Positions 18,749 through 18,874 of a stretch of 40,991 bases of DNA are shown here, piece after piece. The stretch covers positions 1 to 40,991 of IMG/VR virus record IMGVR_UViG_2896607866_000004; one strand, written 5' to 3'. Made by a program: the position numbers and the translations under genes. The notes beneath the pieces were generated by a model. The model worked only from the letters and a program-made list of their open reading frames with translations. It did not search any database and was not told the DNA's origin. The stretch is from a virus (lineage: Duplodnaviria; Heunggongvirae; Uroviricota; Caudoviricetes). Position 1 is the first letter of the stretch, and every line of letters starts with the position of its first letter.

Positions 18749-18794
18749 GTCTTTCAGTCTGCGATGATGGGAAATCCCGGAGTGACTGAAAGAC
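18749..18794. repeat. perfect 11-bp inverted repeat (GTCTTTCAGTC … GACTGAAAGAC) with 24-nt spacer
   Basis: Seen directly, immediately after the last tRNA. Confidence 0.7.
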
Positions 18795-18801
18795 GTTTAA
18801 G

Positions 18802-18874
18802 TTATGAATGATCGCCTTTTTTTGCAAAATTGCTGTGCAGAAATACTAACCTTCGGGCGTGCGATCATTCATAA
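18802..18874. repeat. perfect 14-bp inverted repeat (TTATGAATGATCGC … GCGATCATTCATAA) with 45-nt spacer
   Basis: Seen directly; the spacer contains CGCCTTTTTTTGC. Confidence 0.7.

Follow-up and report, generated by a model that had tools for sequence, protein, structure and literature searches.

What occupies the 292 nt of non-coding DNA between the tRNA gene cluster and the holin gene of this viral sequence, and what are the two long palindromes that it contains? The 40,991-nt stretch analysed (the window) carries here the genes of a lambdoid late-control region (Table 1), in which the end of the tRNA-Gly gene at 18742 is followed by the element described below at 18749-18925 and by the remnant of a terminator at 18950-18975. 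RefSeq annotates no feature in the 292 nt of the identical locus of E. coli CFSAN029787. A preliminary description of the window noticed an 11-bp and a 14-bp perfect inverted repeat (IR1 and IR2) directly downstream of the tRNA cluster (18432-18742), and both are present at the positions given there, IR1 beginning 6 nt past the fourth tRNA gene. Arms of this length were held to be improbable by chance in 130 bp, which a scan of the entire window and shuffling bear out. Besides IR1 and IR2, no perfect inverted repeat in it combines arms of 11 nt or longer with a spacer of 3-60 nt, and 100 dinucleotide-preserving shuffles of the window contain on average 0.58 such repeats for arms of at least 11 nt and 0.01 for arms of at least 14 nt, so that the occurrence of both within 130 nt is far beyond chance. 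The preliminary description overlooked the third repeat, of 9 nt, and the larger unit, with a promoter upstream and a terminator downstream, whose 5' part consists of both hairpins.

Table 1. Features of the locus from the Q gene to the holin gene; coordinates are positions in the window.
Feature	Coordinates	Strand	Description
Q antiterminator gene	ORF end 18232		Pfam Phage_antitermQ
Hairpin and T-run	~18319-18346		in tR' position
pT, predicted promoter	18394-18422	+	sigma-70-type, of the prophage tRNA operon; -35 TTGCAG 18394-18399, 17-nt spacer, -10 TATTAT 18417-18422; promoter-like site in scan
Four tRNA genes	18432-18742	+	CAT, Arg-TCT, Thr-TGT, Gly-TCC; ARAGORN; Rfam tRNA 56-70 bits; RefSeq annotation of identical locus
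Non-coding DNA	18743-19034		292 nt
IR1	18749-18759 / 18784-18794		arms GTCTTTCAGTC / GACTGAAAGAC; 11 nt, 100% complementary, 24-nt spacer
HP1 (holds IR1)	18749-18794	+	11-bp stem 18749-18759/18784-18794; G18761-U18783, C18762-G18782; apical 4-bp helix 18768-18771/18776-18779
IR2	18802-18815 / 18861-18874		arms TTATGAATGATCGC / GCGATCATTCATAA; 14 nt, 100% complementary, 45-nt spacer
HP2 (holds IR2)	18802-18874	+	14-bp outer stem 18802-18815/18861-18874; 8-bp inner helix 18819-18826/18836-18843; CC-UUCG-GG hairpin 18850-18857
Third perfect repeat	18873-18881 / 18919-18927		9 nt; adjoins IR1/IR2, belongs to same element
HP3	18875-18925	+	8-bp outer helix 18875-18882/18918-18925; inner helix 18890-18900/18907-18917
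Linker, HP3 to terminator	18926-18949	+	A/U-rich; unpaired in minimum-free-energy fold; 13-26 nt in relatives
Terminator remnant	18950-18975	+	GCCCGC-TTTT-GCGTTT, then T-run
Holin gene	19035-19250		P21-type, class II

The window sequence folds into three hairpins, HP1, HP2 and HP3, with z = -4.1 to -4.3 against shuffles. The outer stem of HP2, which has 14 bp in the window, extends to 15-16 bp in relatives. In HP3, the G/U-rich 14-mer GGGTGGTTTGTTGG at 18903-18916 (GGGUGGUUUGUUGG) is nearly invariant and forms the 3' strand of the inner helix, and its 5' pairing partner varies by exchange of G-U and A-U pairs. HP1 is missing from some relatives, in which HP2 begins 0-2 nt past the tRNA. Moreover, retrieval by the HP3 motif alone yields relatives in which the interior of HP2 is swapped for unrelated sequence while the closing stem UUUUGAA...UUCAAAA is retained; in one of these variants the inner helix is preserved through two-sided changes, G-C to A-U and C-G to U-A. 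As HP1 is optional, the interior of HP2 is replaceable and the G/U-rich strand of HP3 is nearly invariant, HP3 looks like the conserved core and HP1 and HP2 look like accessory hairpins. Most of the G/U-rich motif lies in base pairs in the predicted fold, an unusual state for a seed. Three further features of the element were considered and rejected: a promoter inside HP2 (TTGCAA-16 nt-TACTAA), which is not called by the scan and loses the key A of its -10 in HK639 and L085; a hammerhead-like HP1 (GUC...GAUGA...), whose core misfits and which has zero Rfam ribozyme matches; and a pairing of the HP3 loop GUGGGUG with the terminator left arm CGCCCGC, which exists in the sequence type of the window and is regarded as a coincidence since it is not conserved in the HK639 type.

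The evidence that the palindromes are RNA stems comes from relatives in E. coli prophages, phage HK639, Enterobacter, Citrobacter, Yokenella and Phytobacter. Their retrieval relied on exact matches to motifs within the element, with searches based on HP1 and on HP3 as a partial cross-check, and the apparent conservation of loops is therefore inflated for the motif of each scan. In the HP1 alignment of 30 distinct relatives, 96.5% of cells are paired, in comparison with 39-49% after the 3' partners have been slid by 1-3 columns, and five pairs are altered in both partners, such as U-A/C-G at 14:11 and C-G/U-A at 16:12. The alignment of HP2 and HP3 (51 distinct sequences) is paired at 97.2%, against 35-47% when slid, with nine two-sided pair changes. 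The compensatory changes thus total 14 pairs over both alignments, although the number of independent covariation events is modest, because the sequences belong mostly to two main types with a few rarer ones and not to dozens of lineages. Pairs of the HP2 outer stem switch between AU and UA, UA and GC, and AU, GU and GC, and the outer helix of HP3 has compensatory changes at four pairs, occurring in the combinations CUCU/AGAG, UCUC/GAGG, CUCC/GGAG, UCUC/GAGA and CCCC/GGGG. In HK639 the IR1 stem shows two double changes and one G-U pair, and the IR2 stem two double changes, one G-U and one A-C.

The same alignments indicate the strand. They contain 330 G-U cells and 40 A-C cells, and pairing falls to 82-87% if they are read as the - strand; since G-U cells far outnumber A-C cells, the RNA is assigned to the + strand. 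Because compensatory changes keep 96-97% of pairs across genera, selection appears to act on the RNA fold, and it is very probable that the palindromes form stems in a + strand RNA structure maintained by selection. Among the three options that the preliminary description offered, a structured RNA is therefore retained, whereas a protein-binding site and a recombination scar are not, given the compensatory changes and the G-U cells that can pair on the + strand only. The check it proposed, folding and covariation in homologous phages, identifies both palindromes as covarying RNA stems. As far as its sequence tells, the element is a non-coding structured RNA of about 180-230 nt on the + strand.

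The preliminary description also made its case depend on conservation in related prophages, and the element is found in ~530 of 5,426 complete E. coli genomes as well as elsewhere in the Enterobacteriaceae. The 292-nt region as such is present in 523-536 of these genomes (about one in ten), with a median of one copy per genome, all chromosomal and unannotated throughout. Four isolated E. coli phages carry it at ~97% identity, and phage HK639 at 75%. More than 100 further copies come from scans for exact motifs in viral contigs and in one genome per species, with matches that include Enterobacter hormaechei, Citrobacter sedlakii, Yokenella regensburgei, Phytobacter ursingii and Shigella flexneri, and a single reference-genome scan places the element in six Enterobacteriaceae genera. 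In every context examined it lies at the late region of a prophage. A covariance model built from HP2 and HP3 (R1) finds exactly one copy in the window, at 18799-18935 with 148 bits, and recovers every true relative searched with zero chance loci; four non-enterobacterial scan matches are regarded as chance, since the model did not match them.

A permissive Rfam 15 search of 17500-19800 gives no match inside 18754-19034 at E <= 10, and a search of the whole window at gathering scores finds nothing in the element and detects isrK, C4, CssrB, IS009 and tRNAs elsewhere in the window. Families without a match to the element include AgvB, AsxR, Esr41, STnc100, isrK, GcvB, the hammerhead and other ribozymes, and YrlA. 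The sole Rfam overlap with the element is the tail of a weak chance match to Tymo_tRNA-like (18674-18753, E 4.8) that covers tRNA-Gly. Searches of the open-access full-text literature for the conserved sequences of the element, for tRNA trailers and for prophage RNAs found nothing about this RNA, including its expression, processing or binding. The element is a candidate new RNA family, for which an alignment, a consensus structure and a working covariance model are available.

The surroundings of the element are those of a tRNA transcription unit. The -10 of pT lies 9 nt from the first tRNA, and six divergent relatives share TTGC and TAnnAT without variation at the same 17-nt spacing; these relatives include the stretch of 933W that is annotated 'pT; putative tRNA promoter'. 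The tRNA with anticodon CAT is called Met by ARAGORN and Ile by RefSeq. The last tRNA before the element is Gly-UCC in most copies, Met/Ile-CAU in L109 and L120, Glu-UUC in L133 and Lys-UUU in another, and the first hairpin starts 1-8 nt past the 3' CCA of the last tRNA, whichever it is, and ~20 nt behind Lys-UUU. A gap of 1-8 nt is too short for a promoter, and the element therefore has none of its own between the last tRNA and the first hairpin. As is characteristic of tRNA-operon trailers, it lies between the last tRNA and the terminator on the strand of the tRNAs, in the same order behind four different last tRNAs. Where there is no adjacent tRNA, the element follows a YcgJ-like (L085) or a PsiE-like (L128) moron gene or a junction with unrelated sequence, and because of these upstream YcgJ or PsiE genes the tie to tRNA processing is not universal. 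In all contexts, including those without an adjacent tRNA, it is co-oriented with the lysis cassette and directly upstream of it, and the holins of the downstream cassettes belong to three families, namely P21 S, HP1-type and 3TM, the last accompanied by an endolysin of the chitinase class.

On the downstream side, a hairpin with a T-run follows HP3 within 110 nt in 49 of 64 distinct relatives, starting 13-47 nt after HP3. These terminators represent at least four unrelated sequences (GCCCGCTTTTGCGGGC, AGCCTCGCTTCGGCGAGGTT, AAAGGCTGCCATATGGCGGCCTTT and AAACCTCGCCCTGGCGGGGTTT), and for this reason the termination signal is considered to be conserved by function and not by descent. Most relatives have GCCCGC-TTTT-GCGGGC-TTTTCTTTT. 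In the window the right arm reads GCGTTT in place of GCGGGC, which leaves a 3-bp stem, and the terminator scan calls no terminator after HP3. Since the terminator of the window copy is decayed, a discrete 3' end of this copy is doubtful and read-through toward the holin gene is possible. The palindromes themselves are no terminators: HP1 is followed by GUUUAAG and HP2 by GCACUCU, so that there is no U-run after either, and no terminator is called at either. The A/U-rich linker, the U-tailed terminator of relatives and the invariant G/U-rich motif are compatible with Hfq binding and RNA pairing, and are evidence of neither.

The tRNA unit of phage 933W (pT-ileZ-argN-argO-terminator, AF125520) has the same position between Q/pR'/tR' and the lysis genes, a homologous pT and first tRNA, and a similar GC-rich terminator with a TTTT loop. 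In 933W this terminator, GGCTCGCTTTTGCGGGCC, stands 13 nt after the last tRNA and is followed by stx2AB, whereas here ~200 nt of structured RNA intervene and there is no toxin. Because the terminator of 933W follows its last tRNA at once, the structured RNA is seen to sit inside the tRNA operon, between last tRNA and terminator. The view that the repeats occupy the slot of a toxin moron in related phages is thus confirmed, as 933W holds stx2AB there after pT-ileZ-argN-argO and the terminator, and the proposed comparison with the flanks of stx in Stx phages gives a homologous tRNA unit with stx2AB in the same slot. Judged by this arrangement, an unannotated, predicted three-hairpin RNA module closes the prophage tRNA operon just before the lysis genes.

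The best explanation, held with moderate confidence, is that the element is the trailer RNA of the prophage tRNA operon and is released by tRNA processing, with HP1 and HP2 as protective hairpins and HP3 as the functional core. The predicted unit would consist of the promoter pT, four tRNAs, HP1-HP2-HP3, an intrinsic terminator and then the lysis genes. In the lysogen, polymerase that initiates at pT would halt at the terminator, and once RNase P and RNase E had excised the tRNAs, the trailer would be left as an RNA of its own. HP1 and HP2 would close this RNA on the 5' side and so shield it from decay pathways that require an open 5' end, and the terminator hairpin would form its 3' end. The reading of HP1 and HP2 as protective or scaffolding hairpins is based on the optional presence of HP1 and the replaceable interior of HP2 in relatives. 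HP3 with GGGUGGUUUGUUGG may be the working part, which would pair with C/A-rich RNAs or bind a protein. During lytic growth, Q-modified polymerase from pR' would read through. The hairpins would then be included in the late (lysis) mRNA as part of its leader, and may there also shield the 5' end that cleavage exposes.

A tentative extension, which is rather unlikely in its full form, is that the trailer is stable in lysogens and that GGGUGGUUUGUUGG pairs with C/A-rich host mRNAs or sRNAs, by which host expression would be reprogrammed in ~10% of E. coli and in other Enterobacteriaceae. The complement of the G/U-rich motif has 7 matches in the window versus 4.9 expected, which is the chance level. 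In composition, the G/U-rich GGGUGGUUUGUUGG resembles the seed of the host sRNA GcvB.

The alternative that deserves most weight, even though it is not likely, is that the element acts only in cis as a leader of the lysis mRNA, in which the hairpins either cap the 5' end left by tRNA excision against RNase E or form an RNase III site, and that there is no separate functional RNA. Its co-oriented position upstream of the lysis cassette is constant whatever the holin family or the upstream gene, the first hairpin lies 1-8 nt past the 3' end of the tRNA in most relatives, and the interiors of HP1 and HP2 are replaceable, as would be expected of purely structural caps. However, most relatives have a terminator that separates the element from the lysis genes, a plain stabiliser leaves the nearly invariant 14-nt G/U-rich sequence of HP3 unexplained, and phages of the 933W type share the tRNA operon yet lack the element. 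That same invariant motif, which stands out against flanks that fall to ~75% identity, makes it improbable that the element is a functionless passenger, i.e. a decayed remnant of former tRNA genes or of the untranslated region of a lost moron, kept by linkage in a recombination hot spot. HP1 with GAUGAUGGG...CCC does recall the variable-loop/T-arm part of the neighbouring tRNA-Gly, half a tRNA-Gly precedes HP1 immediately in HK639, and the region is mosaic, with insertions and swaps; nevertheless, HP1 has no tRNA-like score in the Rfam search, and compensatory changes across genera maintain 96-97% of pairs. Phage HK639 is a member of a group known for put RNAs, and two large adjacent stem-loops that precede one to three terminators could be taken for a put-like RNA as in HK022, where adjacent stem-loops make polymerase pass the following terminators. 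This reading is very improbable, given that Q is already encoded and read-through of these terminators is its job, that relatives dispense with HP1 or have the interior of HP2 replaced, and that polymerase from pT, if it ignored the terminator, would express the lysis genes in lysogens.

Readings outside RNA structure carry still less probability. Palindromes that act at the DNA level, as the site of a dimeric protein, a site of recombination or integration, or the scar of a mobile element, would agree with the perfect arms of the window copy and with a location in a known hot spot of moron insertion, near which insertion sequences land. The many G-U pairs, however, would be A-C mismatches on the opposite strand, and likewise in a cruciform; the arm sequences change while pairing is kept; the interchange of G-U, A-U and G-C and the conservation across genera are left unexplained; and the repeats occur at a median of one copy per genome in a prophage late region and are not dispersed. 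This leaves DNA-level palindromes with hardly any standing. A dispersed mobile repeat (REP, MITE or IS terminal repeats) is rejected on similar grounds, with one place per genome (median), one copy in the window and arms that covary as RNA. A coding role is equally hard to credit, whether for the 38-aa ORF at 18804-18920, a micro-ORF of 10-13 aa from the ATG in the HP2 stem, or a 43-aa ORF on the - strand. Many variants do share the reading M-x-A-x-F-C-K-I-A-V from that ATG, and the 43-aa ORF is annotated as hypothetical in two phage records. In contrast, one-base changes in the length of a T-run shift the frame in about one-fifth of variants, including isolated phages, lengths range over 10-60 aa, and substitutions are mostly non-synonymous although the RNA pairs are preserved. 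Moreover, a ribosome-binding site is lacking, the ATG is enclosed in a stem of 14-16 bp, and the - strand ORF is lost in relatives of the HK639 type.

Several prophage sRNAs have been reported around this niche, namely AgvB, AsxR, Esr41, STnc100 and isrK (PMC4104026; bioRxiv 10.64898/2026.05.13.724894). AgvB (RF02702) and AsxR (RF02703) are EHEC prophage anti-sRNAs of 51-60 nt, which have their own promoters, form convergent sRNA pairs at the moron site and share a conserved 3' region of ~42 nt, and AsxR is antisense to stx2AB (PMC4104026). They share with the element the moron site downstream of pR' and upstream of the lambdoid lysis genes, whereas the element, which is apparently processed, has about four times their length and runs in the direction of the late genes. 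It does not belong to the AgvB/AsxR type, having a + strand fold of about 180-230 nt, no room for a promoter after the CCA and no Rfam match. PasA, PasC and PasD, prophage sRNAs of EPEC E2348/69, are encoded in the interval from Q to the holin/lysozyme operon and are distributed unevenly across E. coli (PMC8550237; bioRxiv 10.64898/2026.05.13.724894). The location between Q and the lysis genes is common to them and the element; unlike the element, the Pas regions of E2348/69 have no adjacent tRNA genes. Comparison of the four loci PasA, PasB, PasC and PasD of E2348/69 with 18743-19034 by blastn gives chance matches of 10-14 nt only, and model R1 has zero matches there. AgvB, AsxR and the Pas sRNAs, all at the site from Q to lysis, alter host physiology and virulence, and the element is a further predicted RNA at that site: unannotated, supported by covariation, carried by about one-tenth of complete E. 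coli genomes and by several enterobacterial genera, and located in the slot that holds the Shiga toxin in Stx phages.

In logic, the closest known systems by analogy are the trailer 3'ETS-leuZ and RNAs C and D of phage T4. 3'ETS-leuZ is the trailer of the E. coli glyW-cysT-leuZ tRNA operon and acts as an sRNA sponge. Like the element, it lies between the last tRNA and the operon terminator. It is transcribed from the tRNA promoter, and a comparable origin, with release by tRNA-processing nucleases, would be expected of the element. In contrast, 3'ETS-leuZ is short and chromosomal, while the element has ~230 nt and three conserved hairpins and is borne by prophages, and the two sequences are dissimilar. 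The stable RNAs C and D of T4 (species 1 and 2) are structured and encoded with the T4 tRNA cluster; the likeness lies in a phage-encoded structured RNA alongside a tRNA cluster, and those of T4 are co-transcribed and co-processed with the tRNAs. T4, however, is a virulent myovirus, whereas the element belongs to temperate lambdoid prophages and would also be part of a Q-controlled late leader. If the element is indeed released by tRNA processing, the use of a tRNA-operon trailer as a regulator would extend from one chromosomal case to temperate phages, and a reason would be given for the extra conserved sequence in phage tRNA clusters. In the EPEC data set, 3'ETS-leuZ appears under the name 3'ESTleuZ.

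The conserved RNA element that follows the tRNA cluster, formed by the hairpins HP1, HP2 and HP3, is intact in phage HK639 even though its neighboring tRNA is not. At positions 2440-2492 of the HK639 locus (L001), tRNA-Gly is reduced to its 3' half, from the anticodon arm to the CCA end, and HP1-HP2-HP3 begins immediately 3' of this remnant; an intact tRNA-Asn lies just upstream of it. The RNA element is therefore kept without a functional adjacent tRNA.

The terminator downstream of HP3 varies among the relatives. Its right arm forms a graded series of constant length, GCGGGC, GCGGGT, GCGGTT and GCGTTT, so that the T-run lengthens as the stem goes from 6 bp down to 3 bp. 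Judging from the sequence of the decayed terminator in the window's copy, transcription from pT, the putative sigma-70-type promoter of the tRNA operon, may read through into the holin gene. The sequence that separates the first tRNA from the -10 of pT is GC-rich, CTGCCTCC in the window (18423-18431) and CTCGCTCCC in the relatives, and by analogy it recalls the discriminators of tRNA and rRNA promoters under stringent control.

The edges of the element are also landing places of insertion sequences. In one relative's contig (L029, 2423-2559) and two contigs identical to it, the homology ends exactly at the 3' end of HP3, and in another (L185) everything upstream of HP3 is replaced by sequence that resembles the end of a putative transposase gene. 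Moreover, the most divergent contig, L109, has a second, weak match to the HP2+HP3 covariance model at 5566-5640 (34 bits, E about 1e-5), approximately 1 kb upstream of its main copy, and this match may be a degenerate duplicate.

Further features of the window are listed in the table. The lysis cassette is disrupted in this prophage copy, since the endolysin is cut short here and the lysozyme is intact in E. coli CFSAN029787, whose locus is otherwise identical. The 209-aa ORF that separates the holin gene from the endolysin gene had no match in a Pfam search, and in its place phage 689R5 carries a shorter gene of the YdfR family; this ORF may be a moron within the lysis cassette.

Features of the window outside the hairpin element
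Feature	Position	Strand	Remarks
isrK-like RNA then C4 antisense RNA, two tandem copies	12434-12622 and 13090-13278		Rfam, above gathering scores
Terminator downstream of HP3	18950-18975		decayed
209-aa ORF	19254-19883		RefSeq: hypothetical
Endolysin gene	within 19949-21031		truncated after 79 codons; Phage_lysozyme N-terminus
IS3-family transposase gene	20213-21031	-	rve integrase core
CssrB; IS009	39809-39988 and 40745-40948		Rfam, 230 bits; 129 bits; close to window end

The two isrK-like/C4 copies are spaced by ~656 nt, and the pair looks like a duplicated immunity or antirepressor control region of the P1/P7 type. As for IS009, it is reported to lie often next to PasB, a prophage sRNA of EPEC E2348/69 (bioRxiv 10.64898/2026.05.13.724894).
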